From a virus, in the IMG/VR virus record IMGVR_UViG_3300035698_021428: a stretch of 49,956 nucleotides of DNA; one strand, 5' to 3'. A model generated the notes under the pieces. That model saw nothing but the letters and a program-made list of their open reading frames with translations. It was not told where the DNA came from and did no database searches. Every line of letters begins with the position of its first letter. The first letter of the stretch is position 1. The translations under genes and the position numbers were made by a program. Below, piece by piece: positions 649 through 42,720 of the stretch.

Positions 649-1803
649 ATGACAACACCTAATTGGACAGAAGACGTTAGAGCAAAAGGTAACACAAAAA
701 TTACCTGGGCCAATCATCTTTGCGATGACGAGCAAGCGAACGTTGTCGGTCGCGTCGTTTTTGTTCGATCATTCGGTTCGTTGACCTTCATCGTTATCCG
801 CGATGCGGCAGATAGTATACAGATTGGACTGAAGGGCAAGATTGCTCCGCCGCCGATGTGGAGCATTATCTCCGTTCATGGCGTAACTGGTAAGACCAAG
901 AAGGGCGAGCATACTGTTTGGACAGAGAAGTTTGAGTTGCTTGCTGAATGCAACGGAAATATGCCTGACAAGTTTCATGGCATCGAAAATGCTGAATACA
1001 TTTACAACAATAGGCCAGCGCATCTTATCGCTAATCCTGATCATTCTCATAATCTAATGATGCGTAGCCGAATTATTCGGGAGCTTCGTAGACGGCTTGA
1101 AGATGTTCATGCCTTTATGGAAGTCGAAACTCCCTTATTGAACGATGAACCTACAGGTGCCAATGCTAAGCCGTTCATAACTCATCATAATGCAGAGAGC
1201 GAAGACAAGTACCTGAGAATTGCTCTTGAGGTTCCGCTGAAGAAAGCTATCATTGCAGGTTTTCCTAATGTTTTTGAAATCGGTCGTGTATTCAGGAATG
1301 AAGGCGTTGACCGAACTCACCGCCCTGAGTTTACGATGGTTGAGATGTATTCATCTCCTGGTACGCTACAGAACATGAAGGATCTGTTCATTGACCTTGT
1401 ATCTCATTTGCGTGGAGAGTATATCAAGATTCCGACCTATGAGTATGACGACCTTGTAGCTGAACATGGCGAAGATTTTGATGAGCATATGCAGGAACTT
1501 TGCTTCGTCGCTGGTCAGCCTCTTGAACAGACACCGCTTTGCAAGGCTCGTGCTGATGGAAAGGCTGATAGGTTCGAGATCTTCGGTAGAGGCTTCGAGA
1601 TCGCCAACGCTTTTCAGGAGGTTCATACCGCCGAGGAACAGAGAGAGCGTCTTAGCGGCCAAACAGAAGGCTCTGATGACGGCTTGATTGGCGCTCTTGA
1701 GTACGGAATGGCTCCAACAGGCGGAATGGGTATCGGTATTGACCGATTGGTTATGTACCTGCTTGAAATAAACAATGTAAGAGACGTAATTCTTTTTCCA
1801 TAA
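649..1803 (+). CDS. lysS: lysyl-tRNA synthetase-like class II aminoacyl-tRNA synthetase, compact (384 aa)
   Basis: N-terminal OB-fold-like segment (VVGRVVFVRSFGSLTFIVIRD). Motif 2 'FEIGRVFRNEGVDRTHRPEFTMVEMY' is LysRS-type (FRNEG / H.PEFT). Motif 3 is 'GGMGIGIDRLVMYL'. About 120 aa shorter than bacterial LysS. Confidence 0.8.
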   Translation: MTTPNWTEDVRAKGNTKITWANHLCDDEQANVVGRVVFVRSFGSLTFIVIRDAADSIQIGLKGKIAPPPMWSIISVHGVTGKTKKGEHTVWTEKFELLAECNGNMPDKFHGIENAEYIYNNRPAHLIANPDHSHNLMMRSRIIRELRRRLEDVHAFMEVETPLLNDEPTGANAKPFITHHNAESEDKYLRIALEVPLKKAIIAGFPNVFEIGRVFRNEGVDRTHRPEFTMVEMYSSPGTLQNMKDLFIDLVSHLRGEYIKIPTYEYDDLVAEHGEDFDEHMQELCFVAGQPLEQTPLCKARADGKADRFEIFGRGFEIANAFQEVHTAEEQRERLSGQTEGSDDGLIGALEYGMAPTGGMGIGIDRLVMYLLEINNVRDVILFP

Positions 1804-1844: not shown

Positions 1845-2036
1845 ATGGCAATCAATGATATTAAGAAACTAGGAGATCAGCTAGCAGGGCTCAAGACTCC
1901 TCAGGAAGCTCGTCAAGTTGGGCAGTCGCTTGATGCTGCTCTCAATGGACAAGAACCGCCAACAGCAGGAGAAGCCATTACAAAGGATCCTGCGCCAACT
2001 CAGCCGCCTTTATCAGCGGCAGCACGCCATCAGTGA
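1845..2036 (+). CDS. hypothetical protein (63 aa), weak call
   Basis: ORF track only. No clear RBS. The 3' end overlaps the tRNA at 2025. Confidence 0.3.
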   Translation: MAINDIKKLGDQLAGLKTPQEARQVGQSLDAALNGQEPPTAGEAITKDPAPTQPPLSAAARHQ

Positions 2037-2113
2037 GCGGCAGGACGCTCACCAGCCTCCTAAGCTGGCTCCTTCGAGAGAAGGTTTCTAGGTTCGAATC
2101 CTAGTGATGGCGC
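2025..2113 (+). tRNA. non-canonical long-variable-arm tRNA; hand-read anticodon CCU (2059-2061); an 8-bp acceptor / 5-bp T stem (tRNA-Sec-like fold) is possible
   Basis: Acceptor cgccatca/tgatggcg. D stem gagcg/cgctc. Anticodon arm ccagc-ctCCTaa-gctgg. The 19-nt variable arm has stem ccttc/gaagg and a GAGA loop. T arm is ctagg-ttcgaat-cctag. Confidence 0.6.
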
Positions 2114-6648: not shown

Positions 6649-6679
6649 CCGCGGCGAAGGTTCGCCCTGCCGCGGTTTT
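6649..6679 (+). terminator. GC-rich hairpin plus T-run abutting the next tRNA
   Basis: Stem ccgcggc/gccgcgg (7 bp), 13-nt loop, then TTTT. It ends 1 nt before the tRNA at 6680. Confidence 0.4.
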
Positions 6680-6762
6680 GCTGATGTGAGCCGAATTGGT
6701 AAGGCAGCACTCTTGTAAAGTGCCGAGGAAACTCACTGCAGGTTCGAGTCCTGTCATCAGCT
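6680..6762 (+). tRNA. long-variable-arm (class II-like) tRNA; hand-read anticodon UGU (6714-6716)
   Basis: Perfect acceptor gctgatg/catcagc. Leu/Tyr-like D loop gaattggtaa. Anticodon arm gcact-ctTGTaa-agtgc. The 14-nt variable arm has stem gag/ctc and a GAAA loop. T arm gcagg-ttcgagt-cctgt. Confidence 0.6.
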
Positions 6763-6768
6763 TTCAAA

Positions 6769-7005
6769 CGAGAAGGAGAACAGCCAACCCATCGCTCTAC
6801 CCGTCACTGTTTCCATACGGATGAGAGGAAGGTCAGGACTGCACTTCGCAAAAACTCAGGAGGCCGTAAAATAGCCGTTCGAACTGGGGAGGCAGCAACC
6901 TCAAACAAGCCTAGCGTGGGCGAAGCGCTATAATGGTTGGGTTGGGGGCCACAAGATAAATGATGGGATAGAACAGGATCCTGCCTACGGGCACTTTCCT
7001 TCTCG
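6769..7005 (+). ncRNA. rnpB: RNase P RNA, bacterial type-A-like but compact (~237 nt)
   Basis: CR-I-like 'GAGGAAGGUCAGGAC' at 6825-6839 (E. coli: GAGGAAAGUCCGGGC). 'AGAUAAAUGAU' at 6954-6964 (E. coli: AGAUGAAUGAC). 'AUAGAAC..UCCUGCCUAC' at 6968-6988 (E. coli: ACAGAACCCGGCUUAU). The P4 helix 6830-6838/6979-6986 has bulged U6833 and three compensatory changes. The P1 helix is 6769-6779/6995-7005. No credible ORF. Confidence 0.8.
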
Positions 7006-7382: not shown

Positions 7383-7452
7383 ATGAAAACTGACGAGTGA
7401 AAACTGAATGGACAGAACGAGAAGCTGTCGCCGGACGCATAACCGGCATTTT

Positions 7453-7553
7453 GTCTGCGTAGCTCAACGATAGAGCGCCCAACCTGCGATACAGTGTGCC
7501 CTTGGGAGACTGTCAGCTATGGGATGTTGCTGGTTCGAATCCAGTCGCAGACT
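7453..7553 (+). tRNA. tRNA-like gene (101 nt) with normal acceptor, D and T arms but a ~46-nt irregular anticodon region; anticodon not assignable by eye
   Basis: Acceptor gtctgcg/cgcagac. Arg-like D arm gtagctcaacgatagagc. T arm gctgg-ttcgaat-ccagt. Between them, cccaa...(a/t)tggg encloses the hairpin acagt-gtgcccttgggag-actgt. Confidence 0.5.
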
Positions 7554-7740: not shown

Positions 7741-7813
7741 TCCGTCTTAGCTCAATTGGCAGAGCAGCATACTCGTAATATGCAGGTTATCGGTTCGATG
7801 CCGGTAGACGGAT
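7741..7813 (+). tRNA. tRNA-Thr (CGU)
   Basis: Acceptor tccgtct/agacgga. D arm gctc-aattggc-agagc. Anticodon arm gcata-ctCGTaa-tatgc. T arm atcgg-ttcgatg-ccggt. Confidence 0.8.
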
Positions 7814-11158: not shown

Positions 11159-11241
11159 GGTGGCTATGGCAGATTGGTAATGCACCTGGTTGTGGACCAG
11201 GAACCGTAAGGTTTATGCGGGTTCAAATCCCGTTAGTCACC
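11159..11241 (+). tRNA. tRNA-His (GUG) with encoded G-1 and an unusual 15-nt variable arm
   Basis: 5' g-gtggcta resembles E. coli tRNA-His GGUGGCUA. Anticodon arm cctgg-ttGTGga-ccagg. Variable arm aacc-gtaa-ggtt-tat. T arm gcggg-ttcaaat-cccgt. C73. Confidence 0.7.
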
Positions 11242-23436: not shown

Positions 23437-26127
23437 ATGCAAGACAATGATTCCGGCGCAATCCGAGGATCATCAGGCGATCTTTTGATCCCTGAAGGTT
23501 CATATGCTCATTTTTAAGGACTAACAACTGGCGCAATTTCGACCAAGGTTGGGCCTGCAAGCGTTTCGCAATCGGGGCAAGAACGTCCTGTTGCGTTCGA
23601 TCCAGCAAGGCGACAATTCATTGAAGTTAGCCGAGAAAGTTCGGTCAAACTCAATGTTATCGCTGATGAAACCAGTTATGTTATTCTTTCAAATCCGTGC
23701 ATTGCAGTCGCAGACGGCGATGACCAGCTTATTTTTCCAGGATCTTCGGACAAGATTCCCAATCAAGGTCTAGAGAGCGGTCGAAAAGTTGTGGTTCATG
23801 GACCTGTCGAATTTTCGCTTTGGCCTGGACAGACTGCAGAAGTTGTCCCGGGTCATGCTCTTCGCTCAAATGAATATCTTGAACTTGTTGTTTATGATGC
23901 TGATGAAGCAAAAGCCAACTGGGAATCAGCCTCCGTTGTTGAGACCAAGAAAACTGGCGGCGATAAAGAAGATAAAGATGATACGCAGGTTACGTCTACT
24001 GCCCCTGCTGATCTTCTTATGGGACAACGATTGGTTGTCAAGGGAACTGAGGTTTCATTCTATCGTCCTCCAACTGGTATACAGGTTGTTCAGAACGAAG
24101 ACAATATCTTTATTCGACAAGCTGTTTCCCTTGAATTACTTGAATACTGTATTCTTATCGACGAAAATGGCAACAAAAGGTATGAGAAGGGACCAGCAGT
24201 TGTTCTTCCTCGTCCATCTGAACGATTTGAAAAAAGCTCTAGAGGCAATAGAAAATTTAGAGCCATTGAGCTTCAAGACCAGGCAGGCGTTCATATCAAA
24301 GCGCTCAAGACCTACCAGGATGACGACGGAAAAGATCGCAAAGCTGGTGATGAATTCTTCTTGACGGGCAAAGATCGTCCTATCTACTACCCTCGCGAAG
24401 AAGAAGCCGTTATTCCTTATAGCGATGGCGAAAAGATTCACTTCGCTGTTGCGGTTCCCAAGGGGGAAGGCCGCTACGTTATGAATAAGACCACCGGTGA
24501 GATCGCAACGATCATCGGCCCCAAGATGCTTCTTTGCGATCCGACTAATGAAGTCATCGTTCGTCGCATCCTTACTGACAGACAAAGTAATGATTGGTAT
24601 CCTGGTAATGATAACTCTAGGCAATACAATCGCAATCTTCGAGAGATTCAGGAAGCTGCAGGAACGGCTGGTGATTTTGTTGACGATACATCAACACGGC
24701 AGGCAGCAACCAGGGGGCTTCATTCGCTGCGAGAAAAAGGCAATCCAAGAGTAGGCGGAGCTTCGTTCTCAAGTATGTCCGCTTCCGCCGGATCGGAACG
24801 AGGTTTTGAAAGCTTCGAACAAGCTGGTTCAGCAATGATGGGAGAACTAGATCGGCCATCAAGCTATACAGAACCCAAAAGCATTACTCTTGATACACGT
24901 TTTGCAGGAGTTCCTGGTATTGAGCTTTGGACAGGCTACACCGTTATGGTCGTTGACAGAGAAGGAAACCGCCGAATCGTCAGCGGTCCAACCAATATTC
25001 TGCTCAATTATGACGAGTCATTAGAAATCATAGAACTTTCTACCGGCAAACCAAAATCAACAAAAGGATTGATTCGCACAGTATATCTTCGCAGAGATAA
25101 TAATAAGGTTTCCGATTATGTTGAAGTTGAGACAAAAGACCATGTGAAAGTACAAGTAAAACTGTCATTCCTGGTCAATTTTGTTGAAGACAATCCTAAT
25201 GACGATCAGGATGATACCGATTATCAAGAGCGTTGGTTTGCTAGCGAAAACTATGTCAAGCTTCTTTGCGATCATGTTCGCTCGATTCTTAAGGGCGAAG
25301 CTAAAAAGCACGATATCAATAACTTTTATATCAACTCAACATCTATCATCAGAGATATCATTCTTGGTAATCGTCAGGAAGATGGCAGAACAGGTATGTT
25401 CTTTGAACATAATGGTATGCATGTTATCGATGTTGAGGTTCTTGGAACAGAAATTCTTGATCACAGCATTGCTTCGCTACTTACTGGCTCTCAGCGAGAA
25501 GCAGTTGAATCAAGTATTCGTCTTCAGTCTGCCGAAAGAACGCTTAATGTAACTGAGCAAATGGAAGCGATGTCTCGTAAAGAAGCAGTTGCTAAGAATG
25601 AGACCAAGAAGCACGCACACGATCTAACGATAGAAAGCATTGGAAGAACTCTGAAGGAGTCCCTAGCAGACATATCTTCAGAACAAGACAAGTCCGTTCA
25701 TAGGCTTACTGCTCGTACTGCCGAAGCTGAAGCTACTAAAATGGCAAACGTTATTGAGGCCGAAGCTGCGGTCGCAGGAAGCGAGATTGAGCGAGAAGAT
25801 CAGAAACTCGATCATGAACAGAAAATCTTAGAAGCAGAAGAAATAGCTAGGCTTGACAAGGAAGCGATTGAAACCGAAGTCAAGGCCACAGTTGATAAGC
25901 TCAAGGCCCTTGAAGGTTCGGGGTTGACCGACGTTCTTGCTACGCTTGGTCGAGAAGACTTCTTGACCCGTATAGCTGAATCCAGCAATCTTGAACGATT
26001 GATTGGCGGAGCTAGCGTCCAAGATACTTTGACCGGAATTTTCGGCGTTGAGTCGCCTATTGCTAAGGCGTTCGTTGCTATCAAGGCAGGAAAGCCGCTT
26101 GCTCAATCTTTGCTCAATAGCGACTAG
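23437..26127 (+). CDS. major vault protein (MVP) homolog: vault repeats, SPFH-like shoulder and cap-helix (~896 codons) with one in-frame TAA at 23515-23517
   Basis: GGAGA RBS plus ATG 23437. 'LLIPEGSYAHF*GLTTGAISTKVGP..ERPVAF' vs human MVP '[25 protein letters not shown]..ERVLF'. 'GDEFFLTGKDRPIYYPREEEAVI' vs '[21 protein letters not shown]'. 'YVMNKTTGEIATIIGPKMLL' vs '[20 protein letters not shown]'. E/A/K-rich C-terminal helix. The track ORF 23791 starts at an internal GTG. Confidence 0.8.
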
Positions 26128-26302: not shown

Positions 26303-26655
26303 GGGGGCGATATGGAATCGCTTCAGTAGGGTAGGAAGGATTGTTGCGAGCCGGGGAACCATGCTTAGGCCCCGTAAAAAAGTATGGAATAATTAGTTGC
26401 CAACAGCAACCCACTCCGCATCGCTGCTTGACAGCGGTGCCTGCAAGTCCTGAACGCCGATACGGGATACGCAGAAGATTTTCGGCTGGTCGTCTGAACA
26501 ACTGTTTCAACCAACAGACGATGAGATAAAGGATGAGACCGCTCCCTGTCGCAGACTGTCGCTGGTCGGCTAGGGGCTAAGATAAAACATCGACTACGCT
26601 CGTAGAAACGCCCAACAAACTACTGAACACGGCGGTTCGAATCCGCCCGCCTCCA
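26303..26655 (+). ncRNA. ssrA: tmRNA (SsrA), tag ANSNPLRIAA
   Basis: 5' GGGGGCGAUAUGGAAUCGC.. pairs with 3' ..GGCGGUUCGAAUCCGCCCGCCUCCA (G3:U70, T arm). The tag ORF GCC AAC AGC AAC CCA CTC CGC ATC GCT GCT TGA lies at 26399-26431. Confidence 0.85.
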
Positions 26656-26664
26656 TTTAGAAAG

Positions 26665-31079: not shown

Positions 31080-32729
31080 ATGGCAACCAAACTTGGAAAA
31101 GGCGAGTATCCCAGCGATCATTCGCCAGAAGACTTTAAATGCTTTGGCCCTCCTGCTCAGGAAGACGGTCAGTTTGACGGCATGATGATGGCTGACATGG
31201 GCTGCTTCAAGCAAGATGGTACAGATTCCAACAAATTCTACCATGGCGCAGTTGTTCAATCCAAAAAAGATGATAGCTGGTATGCCTACTATGAATGGGG
31301 CAGAACTGGGAAAGGTTCTTCTGATAAGCAATTCGTTTGTTGTTCGTCGAAAGAAGAAGCTGAACAAGTATTCTGCAAGCAGATGCACTCCAAAAATGAC
31401 AAGCGAGGCGAATGGGTCAAGATAGGCAGTAAAGACATTCTAAGAGCGAAGACAGGCAAAGACTGCTACCTTATCCGTCCGCTCGCAAAGCGATCTCATG
31501 GCCTTCCAGACGCTCAGACAATCGTCCATGACGATAGCGGCAAAGCTGGCAGCGCCGTCGCTAAGAAAACAACCAAAAAGACCGGAAAGAAAACCAGCAA
31601 AAAGATTGCTAAGAAAAAATCAAACGTTGATCCAAAGACTCTTAGTCTTATGAAGGATATGAACGTTGCAGCGGTTGAATTTACTCGCTCGCAGGTTGAT
31701 AGCGATGCAGTCCCAACTCAAGGCGTTATCGATGAAGGCAGAGATGTTCTTATCGAAGCGGAAAAAAGAGTTAAGAAAATTGGATCAAAGCTTGAAGAAC
31801 AAATTAGCGATAGAGACCTTCGAGATCTAACGTATCATCTCTATTCTCGAATCGGGAAGCCAAAGCCTCTCAATACGCTTGAATCTGCCTGGATTCTTTC
31901 TCAAGACAACATCATGCGTTGGCGAATGGACCTTGATACATTTGAGCAGGCATTATATGCTCTTGACCTAGGCATTGGCAGCGATACTCAGAATACCTTT
32001 GATCCGTTCAATGGCATGAATATTGAGATGATTCATCTCGACCCGACTAAAACGGCTGAAGGTCAATTTATTCACAATTGGATGCCTGGCGCAACGAAAA
32101 ACGTCCACGGGCACGTTGGCGACATGAGTATTGTCAACGCATGGGGCGTTCGTCAAACTGATTTTGCACCAAAATTTGAAGCAACTGCTGCAAAGATTGG
32201 TAATCGCAATTTCACCCCATCTGACAAACCTATCAAGCAGCCCCGAAAACGATCTGATATCTCGCCAGAAATGGCTAAACTATTCGATCAAGCAAATGTC
32301 AATCTCTTATTCCATGGAACAAGATCTGTCAATGTTCCTGGCATTCTTCGCACAGGGCTAAGGCTCCCCAGAGAGCTTGTTGGAGTTGTCCTTACTGGCG
32401 CAATGTTTGGACCCGGTATCTATTGGGCCGATGATTGGAAAAAATCAGACGGTTACACTTCTCGACCAGGAACTTATTGGTCAAGAGGCGGGGGACAGGT
32501 CAAAGGTCGCAAGGCTTTTATGTTTGTTGCCAATGTTGCTCTTGGCAATCCTCATATTGCTCGCGGTCCTCAAGGATATACTGCTCCGCCGAAAGGTTGC
32601 GATTGTGTTGCAGGTCTTGCTAATAAGAGCAGCGTAGCCAACAACGAATGGATTGTTTACGACAGTATGCAAAATTCTCTTACATATCTTATTGAATACG
32701 AAGTTTCAGGCAGCAGCCGTCGCTGGTAA
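31080..32729 (+). CDS. poly(ADP-ribose) polymerase-like protein: WGR, Lys-rich linker, helical regulatory domain and PARP catalytic domain (549 aa)
   Basis: WGR 'FYHGAVVQSKKDDSWYAYYEWGRTGKG'. Linker 'AKKTTKKTGKKTSKKIAKKKS'. Catalytic H-Y-E triad: 'LLFHGTRSVNVPGIL', 'FGPGIYWADDW' and 'NNEWIVYDSMQNSLTYLIEYEV' (PARP1: '[22 protein letters not shown]'). Confidence 0.9.
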   Translation: MATKLGKGEYPSDHSPEDFKCFGPPAQEDGQFDGMMMADMGCFKQDGTDSNKFYHGAVVQSKKDDSWYAYYEWGRTGKGSSDKQFVCCSSKEEAEQVFCKQMHSKNDKRGEWVKIGSKDILRAKTGKDCYLIRPLAKRSHGLPDAQTIVHDDSGKAGSAVAKKTTKKTGKKTSKKIAKKKSNVDPKTLSLMKDMNVAAVEFTRSQVDSDAVPTQGVIDEGRDVLIEAEKRVKKIGSKLEEQISDRDLRDLTYHLYSRIGKPKPLNTLESAWILSQDNIMRWRMDLDTFEQALYALDLGIGSDTQNTFDPFNGMNIEMIHLDPTKTAEGQFIHNWMPGATKNVHGHVGDMSIVNAWGVRQTDFAPKFEATAAKIGNRNFTPSDKPIKQPRKRSDISPEMAKLFDQANVNLLFHGTRSVNVPGILRTGLRLPRELVGVVLTGAMFGPGIYWADDWKKSDGYTSRPGTYWSRGGGQVKGRKAFMFVANVALGNPHIARGPQGYTAPPKGCDCVAGLANKSSVANNEWIVYDSMQNSLTYLIEYEVSGSSRRW

Positions 32730-35513: not shown

Positions 35514-38157
35514 ATGAGTATTCCACAAAATGCAGATCTTTCCATAGTATCTCAAGCTGAAGCCGATCGCCACAAGATGGTTACAGATAATAATGAAGTT
35601 GGAGGAACAAGGGCATTTGTTTCAAATCCTGATTCAAATTTCTCATTTTCTCATCCGAAGGTTCTTCAGCTTGGAAATACCACATCAAATAAAGACGCTG
35701 TTCTTGCGTATCGAATTCTAGTAGTAGAATCAGGCGGGAAAGCAAAGACCCCAGATTTTAATTGGCATTCTGGTATATTTTCTACAGGAGAAAATCTTCG
35801 GGTAACTCATAACGGATCATATTATTACCAGTTTAGAACAATGTGGGATGTTGGCACAAGCGGAAGCTTACCAGAAGGAACAAGTATTATTGAGCTTCTT
35901 GAAATGTATTCCACTGCTGAATCAGCAATTGCTTCAACGCAAAAAAATTGCTTTTTATATTCAAAAAAGCAGCGGCGTAAATCACTTAGTCTGCAAGCTT
36001 GCTGATCCTAATATAGGATACGAAGATCCCACAGAACTATTGCAAAATGGTGTTTGGTATGATATAAGAATGAAATATAAGCCAGAAACAGGAAGCTCAG
36101 CAGATGGAATTTTGCTTGTAGAACAAAAACTTGCGACAGCTAGCTCATGGACTACTTTGATAAATGTAACAAATCATACTCAGAATGCTGATATAATGTG
36201 GGTAGAATATCAGCACAAGGCCTCAAGCGGATTGTCTCCAGGCATAACATCTTCTAAAACCTGGATTGCTTCTAGTTATCAAAGATTAGATAGTTTTGAG
36301 GCTGACGATTATGAATATAATAGATTTAGAACGTCAACGTGCCTGGACGTATCTTCGTCTATAGCTAAAATTAGAGTTCACTGCGATGATGAAACAATTG
36401 ATACATCTTCTGGAGGGTTTATTGTTCAATACGGAACAAATTCGACTTTATCATCAGGTGTTATTGATTCATCCTATACAGCTTTTAGCGCTAGAACCCA
36501 TGACTGCGCTACCGTATCTCTAACTTCATTATCTGCTGATACAAGATATTATTACAGGTTAAAATTTCAAGATGACGAAAGTTCTCCTACCGATACTTAT
36601 ACTGTGCCAGAAATACGGTCATTCAAAACTCTAGCAACTACTACTGGCGGAACTCGAAAAATACTAATTGGAGGATGTAAGGGGCACGCAGGATGGAGAG
36701 GCGGCAATGCTGCTTTCGATCACTTAATAGCTGCTGAAGGCACTCCTGACATGATAATATTCAATGGAGACATGATATATGATACAGACCTAACGCAATT
36801 GGGTTCAGGAAATAGCGACTATGAACTATGGGACTTAACTGAGGATAATTATTCATCAGCTTATAGACTTTCATTTGGAGAATATGATTTCGCAAAAATA
36901 CTTTCTGAATGCGCTTTCTTTGGGATGTGCGAAGATCATGAATTCTTTAATTCATGTGATGGTAATATGCGAGGGCAAGCAGTCAATATGGGATTAGCAG
37001 TTGATAATGCTGGAACAGCATATCCTACTTCTCATATGAATACAACATATCTAAACGGAGGCGGCGCGCCAGTTACAGCCGATGGTATATTCACCATAGC
37101 CACTGATGTTATGGCGTCATGGTGGGGAAACGGAACAATAAACGCAGCCGACTCTGGTTCAGGACGAGATTATTATCGTTCGTTTGAGCATGGTAATGTA
37201 TTAGTTCTTATGTTAGATACCAGAACACGAAGCACTGCAACTAGCCTAATTACATCAGCACAAGAGACATGGATTCAAACAACTATAGCAGCTTCGGACG
37301 CCAAATATATTGTTATTAGTAGCCCCGCTTCATGGGGAGATTATCTTATCAATATAAGTCCAGCCGAGGCATGGGGAAGCAATGCAAATCTCAGAGCGCA
37401 ACGTGCTAGTATATTTAACTGGATAAAAAACAATGCTTCTGATAAAGTAGTTTATCTTATAGGCGGAGATAGGCATACTCCTTATGTTGCGTATCCTAGC
37501 GATTTAACCGGACCAGATGGTCCTCTCAAAAGAATTGCAATGGCATCGCCATTTAACCAAGATAACAATTTCAACACAAGCGCTATTACCGCAATGGCAT
37601 CTGACCCATCAGTCGTATCAGTTATAAGTACCGATGATTATACTGGCTTATCAATGGTCAGAACTTCTGGTTTATTAGTAGAAATTGACGAAGCAACGGA
37701 TACCGTTCGATTAGTTATGTATGATGATAATGGAAATAAATTGATAGATGAAAGCGACTCCTATGCATTATCAACCGAAACCAGTAATGAAATATCAAGG
37801 GCCATATCTATAACAACGGCTCCTACGCACATACCTTCTCCGACCTTTTCTCTAGCAGGAACAAGCTATGCAACAAGATTTATTGATCCGAACATAGAAG
37901 CTATGATAACAAAGCAAAATCTAAATGCGCCTGTTAGCGTTTCCTTTGAATCAGTAACTAATGATTATGAAATCCGCTATACCACAAATAGCAATAGAAA
38001 TCCAACAAGCAAGAGTATTCTATATTCTGGTCCTTTGAGCATAAGTAGAAACTTGACTGGCGTTGATAATACTGTTGTTAAAGCCAGGATATTCCACAAA
38101 AATAATCCTGGAATTCATAGCCGTATAACTAAGTTAGAATTCAACGTAATTATGTGA
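35514..38157 (+). CDS. LamG-like plus PhoD-like metallophosphatase (alkaline phosphatase D family) fusion, ~880 aa, read across a +1 frameshift at an A7 run (35941-35947)
   Basis: Track ORFs 35514..36005 and 35848..38157 overlap. Removing one A gives '...AIASTQKIAFYIQKSSGVNHLVCKLAD'. PhoD_N-like 'LSADTRYYYRLKF'. Metallophosphatase motifs 'FNGDMIYD' and 'GMCEDHEFFN'. Confidence 0.7.
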
Positions 38158-38916
38158 TCATAGTCCGGTTTTTGGATTTGGAGATTTTCCTTTTAGCCGT
38201 TTGTAGCATGGTAAATATTTATGGACTTCAATGTTTTCCCAGTTATTTCGAGAGTTCCAAAAATGGACTCCGTATGTTCCTGATTTGATATTGAACTGGT
38301 TATCAATAATATTCCCAATGTCATGCGGATGAAATGTTAGCACAGAATCCATAGCTATGTTTCCAAAATATTTTTGAACCGTATCTGACCATCGGTAAGG
38401 GCCGGTGGTCCATAAGCCCAATAATATTTGCGCAGCTTTCTGTCTTTTTTCTGGCATATCATTCTTACTGCAATAGCCATCTTTATACCTGAGTCTATCG
38501 AATGATTCTCTGATGTTATCAAAGTGTTGTTTAATAAGTGGGTGACCGGGAACTATCCCTATAACATCATTATTCAGGCACTTTTTGTTTGAATAACCAA
38601 GTTGTTTTGCGAAATAATATTCTCTGTTAGCAACAAGTTTATCAATGGGTTTTACCATCATGATATCTACATCTATGTAGACTCCTCCGTATTTTTCTAG
38701 GATCTCATATCGTAAAATATCTGCTTTGAATTGAGGATATTCGAAATAATCATAAATATCAGGTATGCGATTTTTAGGTATATTACTTTCATCCCACCAT
38801 TTGTATTCCCAGTCAGGATGCAATTCTTTCAAGTGTTGAATAAAAAACTTGAATGGCTCCGGTATATGACGTTTGCCAATCCATATCTGATGAATAATTT
38901 TAGGTATCTCTGACAT
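38158..38916 (-). CDS. DXD-motif glycosyltransferase (Gly_transf_sug / OCH1-like), 252 aa
   Basis: 'IPKIIHQIWIGKRHIPEPF' and 'YGGVYIDVDI'. Confidence 0.8.
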   Translation of the reverse strand: MSEIPKIIHQIWIGKRHIPEPFKFFIQHLKELHPDWEYKWWDESNIPKNRIPDIYDYFEYPQFKADILRYEILEKYGGVYIDVDIMMVKPIDKLVANREYYFAKQLGYSNKKCLNNDVIGIVPGHPLIKQHFDNIRESFDRLRYKDGYCSKNDMPEKRQKAAQILLGLWTTGPYRWSDTVQKYFGNIAMDSVLTFHPHDIGNIIDNQFNIKSGTYGVHFWNSRNNWENIEVHKYLPCYKRLKGKSPNPKTGL

Positions 38917-42648: not shown

Positions 42649-42720
42649 GCTTCGTTAGCTCAATGGTAGAGCAATAGTTTCTAAAACTACAGGTTGTCGG
42701 TTCGAGTCCGACACGAGGCA
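42649..42720 (+). tRNA. suppressor tRNA, anticodon CUA (reads UAG); body resembles tRNA-Lys
   Basis: Acceptor gcttcgt/acgaggc. D arm gctc-aatggta-gagc. Anticodon arm atagt-ttCTAaa-actac (anticodon 42681-42683, A27-C43 mismatch). T arm gtcgg-ttcgagt-ccgac. A73. Confidence 0.75.

Follow-up and report, generated by a model that had tools for sequence, protein, structure and literature searches.

A tRNA(UGU) gene with a long variable arm

We analysed a stretch of 49,956 nucleotides (nt) from a virus (IMG/VR record IMGVR_UViG_3300035698_021428), hereafter the window, and focused on a transfer RNA (tRNA) gene that combines a UGU anticodon with a class II-like body and probably serves as a threonine tRNA (Table 1). 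ARAGORN calls a tRNA-Thr(tgt) of 83 nt on the + strand at exactly 6680-6762, and the Rfam tRNA model RF00005 gives the same interval 54.1 bits, the gathering score being 29 (E = 6e-9 for the whole window). In this alignment the anticodon positions of the model fall on UGU within the 7-nt loop CUUGUAA with full posterior probability, and 10 bases of the variable region (gaggaaacuc) are handled as an insertion. The minimum-free-energy fold is a cloverleaf with an additional hairpin of three base pairs (bp), GAG-GAAA-CUC; the energy z-score of -1.65 is unremarkable alone. Rfam score, fold and covariation in all helices (see below) are those of a canonical elongator tRNA, with a 7/5 acceptor/T geometry. 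CCA is encoded neither by this gene nor by any other tRNA gene of the window.

These data bear out the structural part of the initial annotation, which had been made from the letters alone and had described a perfect acceptor stem, a canonical T arm, UGU in a 7-nt anticodon loop and a class II-like body with a 14-nt variable arm. All seven acceptor pairs are Watson-Crick, the T arm is normal, the variable hairpin is recovered in the minimum-free-energy fold, and the covariance model yields no other anticodon, no 8-nt loop and no low score. The D arm follows the same trend, as its stem has 3 bp and its loop, GAAUUGGUAA, is of the Leu/Tyr/Ser type. The entire D region (UGAGCCGAAUUGGUAAGGCA) comprises a 3-nt connector, a 3-bp stem with G13·A22, and A14, A15, G18G19 and A20a, the Rfam alignment placing a single-base insertion after U8.

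The first base of the tRNA is directly abutted by a GC-rich hairpin followed by a T run, which may act as an upstream terminator or as a leader structure for processing. This hairpin was not called in the terminator scan because its loop exceeds 8 nt, and the counts of promoters and terminators around the gene are at the level of shuffled controls. A second GC-rich hairpin with a T run likewise abuts the 5' end of a tRNA-like gene located further downstream.

Table 1 Features of the tRNA(UGU) gene and of its surroundings in the window
Feature	Positions	Strand	Basis
tRNA(UGU) gene, class II-like body, Thr-type identity positions	6680-6762	+	ARAGORN, RF00005, fold, covariation
Acceptor stem, 5' strand GCUGAUG; partner CAUCAGC at 6755-6761; 7/7 Watson-Crick	6680-6686	+	sequence
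Class II-type D arm, GCC(G)-AAUUGGUA-(A)GGC, after 3-nt connector UGA	6690-6705	+	Rfam alignment, D-region neighbours
Anticodon arm, 5-bp stem GCACU/AGUGC, 7-nt loop CUUGUAA; U33, A37, A38	6707-6723	+	sequence, Rfam alignment
Anticodon UGU (TGT)	6714-6716	+	sequence, Rfam alignment
Variable region, 14 nt, C-GAG-GAAA-CUC-ACU; 3-bp stem, GNRA tetraloop cap	6724-6737	+	fold
Last U of variable region, position 48, Levitt partner of A15	6737	+	alignment
T arm GCAGG-UUCGAGU-CCUGU, G49-U65 wobble pair	6738-6754	+	Rfam alignment, fold, covariation
Discriminator U73	6762	+	sequence
GC-rich hairpin ccgcggc(13 nt)gccgcgg, then TTTT, abutting the first base of the tRNA	6649-6679	+	sequence
Minimal bacterial type-A RNase P RNA-like element, 229 nt, 13 nt downstream of the tRNA	6775-7003	+	RF00010
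Second GC-rich hairpin and T run	7430-7452	+	
tRNA-like gene	7453-7553	+	RF00005
Partner tRNA-Thr(CGU), ordinary class I, 73 nt, U73, C2-G71	7741-7813	+	ARAGORN
tRNA-Arg(CCU), 88 nt, 5-bp variable stem, GAGA cap	2026-2113	+	ARAGORN
tRNA-His(GUG), variable hairpin ACC-GUAA-GGU, G-1 encoded at 11159, C73	11160-11242	+	ARAGORN, Rfam
CTA-anticodon tRNA	42649-42720	+	ARAGORN
CTA-anticodon tRNA	45505-45577	+	ARAGORN
tmRNA	26303-26658	+	
Class II LysRS	649-1803	+	
Major vault protein homologue	23791-26127	+	
PARP catalytic/WGR protein	31080-32729	+	
PhoD-like gene	35514-38160	+	

A family of long-arm Thr(UGU) tRNAs

Homologues were gathered with two sequence patterns, and the loci that contain them are referred to by L numbers. 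Pattern 1, consisting of the D-loop motif TGGTA, the loop CTTGTAA, a long spacer and the T loop, was run on viral contigs and identified nine viral loci, with Thr(tgt) genes, 83-91 nt long, in seven. Pattern 2, which consists of the variable arm and T arm only and is blind to the anticodon, matched 6 viral, 67 metagenomic and 15 genomic loci. Its motif could be placed within 83 tRNAs called by ARAGORN: 37 Leu, 17 Thr(UGU) (13 distinct), 7 Gln(UUG) (5 distinct Gln), 6 Ser, 4 Asn (4 distinct), 4 Arg(UCU) (3 distinct), 2 Tyr, 2 Gly (2 distinct), 2 Met (1 distinct), 1 Lys and 1 Arg(ACG). No Thr tRNA was present among the 15 motif matches found in 185,579 species-representative genomes, all of which have Leu anticodons or, in Woesearchaeota, the Ser(UGA) anticodon. 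In total, 18 distinct long-variable-arm tRNA(UGU) genes were gathered from viral and metagenomic contigs. UGU follows U33 in a 7-nt loop in 17 of these 18 homologues, the last one (L061) having C33 (UCUGUAA).

The closest homologues are located in IMG/VR contigs of 134-529 kilobases (kb) and in cultured jumbo phages. Two loci belong to cultured phages: Cronobacter phage GAP32 (L005), in which GenBank lists an 85-nt tRNA-Thr credited to tRNAscan-SE (JN882285.1, 278688-278772), and Yersinia phage fHe-Yen9-04 (L009), whose family member is also annotated as tRNA-Thr in GenBank. Direct BLAST of the window tRNA against GenBank phages returned no match at E <= 1e-3, and the GAP32 homologue surfaced only under a relaxed search. 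Since family members are annotated as tRNA-Thr in GenBank, the gene type is already in the databases, and it is its class II-like architecture that appears to be undiscussed: a literature search that covered part of the journals, and hence a weak negative, brought up no account of phage Thr tRNAs with a long arm. The family recurs in large bacteriophages and is apparently undescribed. In five of the arrays (window, L012, L052, L053 and L061), the long-arm Thr(UGU) gene lies beside an ordinary Thr(CGU) or Thr(GGU) gene, the partner in the window being a Thr(CGU).

We aligned 15 homologues from other contigs. Across this alignment, 97.5% of the cells pair, the covariation score of 0.714 is reached by none of 500 shuffles, and pairing falls to 30-55% when the 3' partners are slid by 1-3 columns. 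Every helix is supported by covariation. All five pairs of the anticodon stem show changes in both strands, the closing 31-39 pair among them (UA in 12 sequences, AU in 3), which establishes the loop at 7 nt and rules out one of 8 or 9 nt that would expose GUA. In the variable stem the middle pair covaries (AU 10, GC 4, UA 1), and the two outer pairs do not vary, in part because the search pattern demanded them. Positions 15 and 48, the Levitt pair, read A-U in 14 sequences, L012 having G-C, indicating that the arm sits in an otherwise canonical tertiary frame. The same alignment bears on whether the gene might be a non-functional pseudogene or a tRNA-like element acting outside translation. 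The lack of an encoded CCA and the extra connector nucleotide in the D arm would fit such a fate; however, no tRNA of the window encodes CCA, and the extra nucleotide is common to six family members and is also found in Tyr, Ser and Asn tRNAs whose D arm is the same. Moreover, the helices are intact, with compensatory changes across a diverse family in which U33, A37, G18G19 and the T loop are kept, and we consider either alternative very improbable.

The comparison of D regions shows which tRNAs this body resembles. The nearest neighbour of the window D region is that of the sister Thr tRNA of L053, followed, one edit away, by the L007 Tyr tRNA, then by an Asn (L047) and a Ser (L039) tRNA carrying the same kind of short arm (mini-arm), and by Leu(UAG) tRNAs. 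Outside its own family, the closest D regions are thus those of Tyr, Ser, Asn and Leu(UAG) tRNAs, in agreement with the Leu/Tyr-like D loop first proposed for this gene. The class II-type D arm and its extra connector nucleotide go together in the six family members mentioned above, the others joining the same variable arm to an ordinary 4-bp D stem. The body could stem from a Leu- or Tyr-like scaffold through remodelling of its acceptor and anticodon, or from a Thr tRNA that gained an arm.

The acceptor end is of the threonine type

To define isotype signatures, we used a labelled reference of 421 unique tRNAs from all fetched loci. The long-arm Thr(UGU) tRNAs all combine G1-C72 with C2-G71 (18/18), and carry U73 (14/18) or A73 (4/18), while ordinary short Thr tRNAs from the same loci have the two pairs in 10 of 13 cases and U73 in all 13. 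U73 is present in 27 of the 31 Thr tRNAs of the reference set. By contrast, Tyr tRNAs have G2-C71 instead (8/11) and A73 (10/11), Ser tRNAs have G2-C71 (31/32) and mostly G73 (25/32), and Leu tRNAs show mixed acceptor pairs with A73 (60/65). A position-weight score computed across the whole acceptor stem did not separate the isotypes, only positions 1-72, 2-71 and 73 being informative.

A 2023 review (NAR, PMC9976931) summarizes the determinants against which the window tRNA can be read. Thr identity lies in acceptor-stem pairs and anticodon nucleotides, position 73 contributing weakly; A73 is crucial for Leu and Tyr identity, and Tyr also needs G34; G1-C72 and G2-C71 are conserved in bacterial tRNA-Ser, and seryl-tRNA synthetase (SerRS) reads the length and orientation of the arm; leucyl-tRNA synthetase (LeuRS) and SerRS disregard the anticodon; and A14, A15-U48, G18G19 and A20a are the tertiary determinants of Escherichia coli LeuRS (PMC9976931). 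The window tRNA has determinants read by threonyl-tRNA synthetase (ThrRS), namely the acceptor pairs G1-C72 and C2-G71 and the anticodon nucleotides G35 and U36. Where a class I tRNA would have a variable loop of 4-5 nt, it has a 14-nt region, a departure from a structural norm that is not a known ThrRS determinant. As regards Ser, it differs by C2-G71, U73 and an arm of 3 bp only; as regards Leu, it has U73 in place of A73, and its sequence holds the full LeuRS tertiary set. The 8/4 or 9/3 acceptor/T configuration of allo-tRNAs is absent, the geometry being 7/5.

These signatures also bear on the one part of the initial annotation that is not supported. It had suggested that the anticodon loop differs from a Tyr loop by what looks like a one-nucleotide change of register. 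A tRNA-Tyr derivative with such a slip could be a recent mutant, a Tyr gene in decay or a suppressor of the frameshift type. There are reasons for this view: the arm layout (1 nt, 3 bp, a 4-nt loop, 3 nt) resembles that of bacterial Tyr tRNAs such as E. coli tRNA-Tyr, an identical arm is found on one phage Tyr(GUA) tRNA (L011, L060), the D region is that close to the L007 Tyr tRNA, and a long variable arm with a short stem is a Tyr trait. However, the window tRNA has UGU and U73 where a Tyr tRNA has GUA and A73, and its loop is the same as in two short Thr(UGU) tRNAs of the reference set, Tyr loops being CUGUAAA or CUGUAAC. UGU in a 7-nt loop occurs in 18 distinct homologues from unrelated contigs, and a covarying U31-A39 or A31-U39 pair closes that loop in the 15 aligned ones. 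With a Thr-type loop, a Thr-type acceptor end and a covarying stem, the slipped-Tyr interpretation is unsupported and largely refuted, and we give it hardly any credence; the class II-like body, the UGU anticodon and the D-arm type stand.

ACA appears to behave as a threonine codon

ACA is the commonest codon of the Thr box in the window, with 227 of 643 occurrences (35%) and 2.0% of 11,202 codons in 38 open reading frames (ORFs). Codon exchange was followed, counting both directions, between the PhoD-like gene and its homologue in L095 (87% amino-acid identity) and between the gene of lysyl-tRNA synthetase (LysRS) and that of L099 (80%). Among 31 changed ACA positions in these two genes, 16 are replaced by other Thr codons (ACG, ACU, ACC), the remaining 15 by codons for Asp, Ser, Val, Glu, Ala, Ile, Asn, Arg, Gly or Pro, and none by a Tyr or Leu codon. 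In the two genes compared, ACA therefore appears to behave as a Thr codon, synonymous with the other Thr codons.

Weighing threonine against other amino acids

Several points weigh against a threonine identity. Thr tRNAs are otherwise class I, and ThrRS is a class II synthetase that reaches its tRNA on the variable-region side, so that a protruding arm could interfere. The family was gathered partly with a pattern that fixes the arm sequence, and the codon-exchange sample is limited to two genes. Comparison of the window LysRS with 106 cellular LysRS sequences placed 9 ACA positions, 2 in Thr/Ser columns and 2 in Leu columns, other Thr codons being equally noisy; this comparison is noisy because the phage LysRS is only 35-40% identical to the cellular enzymes. 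The LeuRS tertiary determinants are all present, U73 alone opposing leucylation. Finally, a long arm with G73 or U73 has been deemed compatible with SerRS in the case of allo-tRNAs (Mukai et al., PMC5389517), and the tRNA-Ser(GGA) of the window itself has U73.

Some of these observations would favour a tRNA whose body dictates charging with Leu, Ser or Tyr and which inserts that amino acid at ACA, much as nematode nev-tRNAs or allo-tRNAs do. Such mis-decoding would be facilitated by the indifference of LeuRS and SerRS to the anticodon, four family members have A73, and a Ser-like tRNA with a Thr anticodon does exist. Nevertheless, U73 replaces the A73 required for Leu and Tyr identity, C2-G71 is opposed to the G2-C71 of almost all Ser tRNAs, the arm is short, and the ThrRS determinants are kept in every one of the 18 family members. 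ACA is moreover the most frequent Thr codon and is exchanged as a synonymous one. Finally, other mini-arm tRNAs have acceptor ends that match their isotypes (U1-A72 in Gln, G73 in Asn, A73 in Tyr, G-1:C73 in His); since they keep the features of their own isotype, the arm does not override identity. On balance we regard mis-decoding by this tRNA as improbable.

The Ser-like tRNA in question is encoded in L121, a 7-kb viral contig (match 1509-1565, -). It has 84 nt, a GGU anticodon, G1-C72, G2-C71, G73 and a 5-bp variable stem with a GAAA cap, which makes it a candidate Ser-for-Thr mis-decoder.

Taken together, these results suggest that the window gene probably encodes a functional elongator tRNA, an ACA decoder charged by ThrRS on a class II-like body, in which the arm is tolerated rather than identity-defining. 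The gene, its fold, anticodon and identity nucleotides, the family and the codon usage are observed, and threonine charging and tolerance of the extra arm are what they make most likely. The host ThrRS, or possibly a phage ThrRS, would recognize G1-C72, C2-G71, G35 and U36, CCA would be added post-transcriptionally, and the tRNA would supplement the decoding of the element's most frequent Thr codon. Other ACN codons may also be read, depending on the modification of U34. As for the arm, our leading guess is that it is an inherited scaffold, kept for the stability of the tRNA or so that other factors can handle or be evaded by it, and not for selecting the aminoacyl-tRNA synthetase.

The mini-arm is found on other isotypes

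The Thr(UGU) tRNA is not the only tRNA of the window with such an arm, as tRNA-Arg(CCU) and tRNA-His(GUG) also carry variable hairpins, all three capped by a GNRA tetraloop (GAAA, GUAA and GAGA). Phage tRNAs for Gln, Asn, Arg, His, Met, Lys and Gly also bear GNRA-capped mini-arms (L010, L011, L012, L041, L047, L067 and others). The Gln tRNA of L010 and the Tyr tRNA of L011 have identical D arms and variable arms on different acceptor stems and anticodons. As a raw count, 22 of 30 distinct carriers of the motif that are not class II isotypes read ANN codons. A control scan for CGU and GGU anticodons mostly returned class I Pro tRNAs in another register, together with two long-arm Thr(CGU) genes (L120, L125).

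This distribution raises the question of whether the arm has a selected, phage-specific function besides Thr decoding, such as a structural tag by which phage tRNAs become poor substrates of host tRNA-cleaving defences, or allowing selective handling by phage factors, for which the adjoining minimal RNase P-like RNA and modification or repair enzymes are candidates. Such selection is a matter of what the arm does and is not in conflict with a ThrRS-charged ACA decoder. It would be consistent with the recurrence of the GNRA mini-arm on many class I isotypes in large phage contigs, with the three mini-arm tRNAs in the window alone, with the lack of Thr tRNAs among the 15 genomic motif matches, with the restriction of the arm to UGU in arrays that have several Thr isoacceptors, and with the ribonuclease P (RNase P) RNAs located inside the same tRNA arrays (see below). 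On the other hand, we know of no nuclease against which a variable arm protects, descent from a single ancestral gene would account equally well for the isoacceptor specificity, long-arm Thr(CGU) genes exist too, and an identical arm is found on cellular Leu tRNAs, so that it may be simply an inherited scaffold. Phage tRNAs are able to defeat tRNA-targeting defences (PMC10264068, PMC11464382, PMC11555353), but the published escapes are anticodon-loop changes. We conclude that selection on the arm is plausible but unsupported, and rather unlikely. Somewhat less likely still is the broader proposal that the class I isotypes with a GNRA mini-arm, Thr(UGU) foremost among them, form a distinct tRNA class maintained by large phages, in which the arm would be a selected mark conferring protection from host immunity or routing to phage machinery such as the RNase P RNAs. 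The idea that PARIS cleaves tRNA-Thr was dropped, as the PARIS paper makes no mention of it.

The surrounding element and its neighbouring RNAs

The window has a GC content of 41% and encodes 13 tRNAs, a transfer-messenger RNA (tmRNA) and two CTA-anticodon tRNAs by ARAGORN, plus one tRNA-like gene detected by Rfam only. Among its protein genes are those for a class II LysRS of reduced length, a homologue of the major vault protein, a PARP/WGR protein and a histidine kinase; no phage structural gene is present within the window, and PHROG matches are few. Because the closest homologues of the tRNA sit in the 134-529-kb IMG/VR contigs and in jumbo phages, we infer that the element is a huge phage or a similar giant mobile element.

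Immediately downstream of the Thr(UGU) gene lies a minimal RNase P RNA-like element. RF00010 spans its whole model on this interval with 49.9 bits (E = 2.6e-14), below the gathering score of 100. The RNA retains P1-P3, GAGGAAGGUCAGG (CR-I), AGAUAAAUG and ACAGGAUCCUGCCUA (CR-V), and its P4 strands CAGGA/UCCUG compensate relative to the consensus CCGGG/CCCGG, while the positions of the specificity domain are replaced by about 46 nt. Natural RNase P RNAs reduced to the catalytic domain are otherwise known from Pyrobaculum-type archaea. Full-length class A RNase P RNAs are found in the tRNA arrays of L007, a 134-kb IMG/VR viral contig (528-902, -), and of L061 (10911-11273, -), with 176 and 180 bits, above the gathering score. 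Both loci also carry a long-arm Thr(UGU) gene, and the L061 RNase P RNA has tRNAs at its ends. No mention of phage-encoded RNase P RNA came up in a literature search. The presence of these RNase P and RNase P-like RNAs suggests that a larger part of the tRNA maturation pathway is encoded on such elements than is commonly assumed.

Other RNA genes of the window deserve mention. The tRNA-like gene, on which ARAGORN makes no call, scores 46.9 bits with RF00005 and has intact acceptor, D and T arms; above a 4-bp stem, its anticodon loop is replaced by 38 nt that include a hairpin (ACAGU...ACUGU), so that no anticodon can be assigned. The two CTA-anticodon tRNAs differ from each other and would be amber suppressors. 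TAG recoding is not evident in the window, where reading TAG as sense lengthens ORFs no more than does TGA or TAA, and the long ORFs are intact under the standard bacterial code. The tmRNA scores 129.6 bits, with a predicted tag ANSNPLRIAA; L051 combines long-arm Thr, His and Asn tRNAs with a tmRNA as well.

Among the protein genes, the LysRS has 384 amino acids (aa) against about 495 aa in bacteria, with relatives of 365-405 aa on metagenomic contigs; there is no tRNA-Lys within the window. The vault protein homologue, with shoulder and repeat domains, lies about 5 kb from the PARP catalytic/WGR protein, a pairing that is reminiscent of the vault components of eukaryotes and comes as a surprise next to RNAs of bacterial type. 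The PhoD-like gene has 83.6% DNA identity to a single 878-aa gene of the 120-kb contig L095 and is split into two overlapping frames (35514-36005 and 35848-38157), suggesting that it is a pseudogene or that a frameshift or sequencing error is involved; the window and L095 have no flanking genes in common. A search for syntenic relatives of the tRNA(UGU) gene found none: no relative of the neighbouring 994-aa protein is present in viral contigs or GenBank phages, and tRNAs are absent from the contigs with LysRS homologues (L097-L100) and with the PhoD homologue (L095, L096), whose overlap with the window is limited to that one gene.

Comparison with known systems

Textbooks limit bacterial long variable arms to Leu, Ser and Tyr (and selenocysteine) tRNAs. 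The conserved, covarying family of long-arm Thr tRNAs indicates that large phages relax this rule without apparent recoding, and sister tRNAs of at least seven other isotypes do likewise. It also carries a warning for annotation: a class II shape with a class I anticodon alone is not evidence of a code change, and the acceptor end needs to be checked. The purpose of the arm is now testable, since GAP32 and fHe-Yen9-04 are cultured phages of Enterobacterales.

Compared with bacterial tRNA-Thr(UGU), such as E. coli thrU, the window tRNA shares the loop CUUGUAA, G1-C72, C2-G71, G35, U36 and the 7/5 geometry, and it has the U73 of ordinary phage tRNA-Thr. It departs from ordinary Thr tRNAs, which have a variable loop of 4-5 nt and a 4-bp D stem, by its 14-nt hairpin region and class II-type D arm. 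The GAP32 and fHe-Yen9-04 tRNAs, about 74% identical to it over 58 nt, have UGU, G1-C72/C2-G71 and a variable arm in the same register (C-GGG-GAAA-CCC-AUU) but differ from it by A73 and a class I-type 4-bp D stem. The arm is also shared, as N-GRG-GAAA-CYC-AYU, with Leu(UAG), Leu(GAG) and Leu(CAG) tRNAs of Patescibacteria-like, Chlamydiae and Thiomargarita genomes, together with the D-arm form GCC-RAAUUGGUAAA-GGC and A15-U48; these Leu tRNAs have A73 and Leu anticodons, whereas the window tRNA has U73, C2-G71 and UGU. Finally, nematode nev-tRNAs (PMC3333845) and allo-tRNAs of bacteria or phages (PMC5389517) resemble it in having a long arm with an anticodon that is not Leu, Ser or Tyr. The former are charged with Leu according to their body (PMC3333845) and the latter, with their 8/4 or 9/3 configuration, with Ser (PMC5389517). 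By contrast, the window tRNA has a 7/5 configuration and an acceptor end that matches the amino acid of its anticodon.

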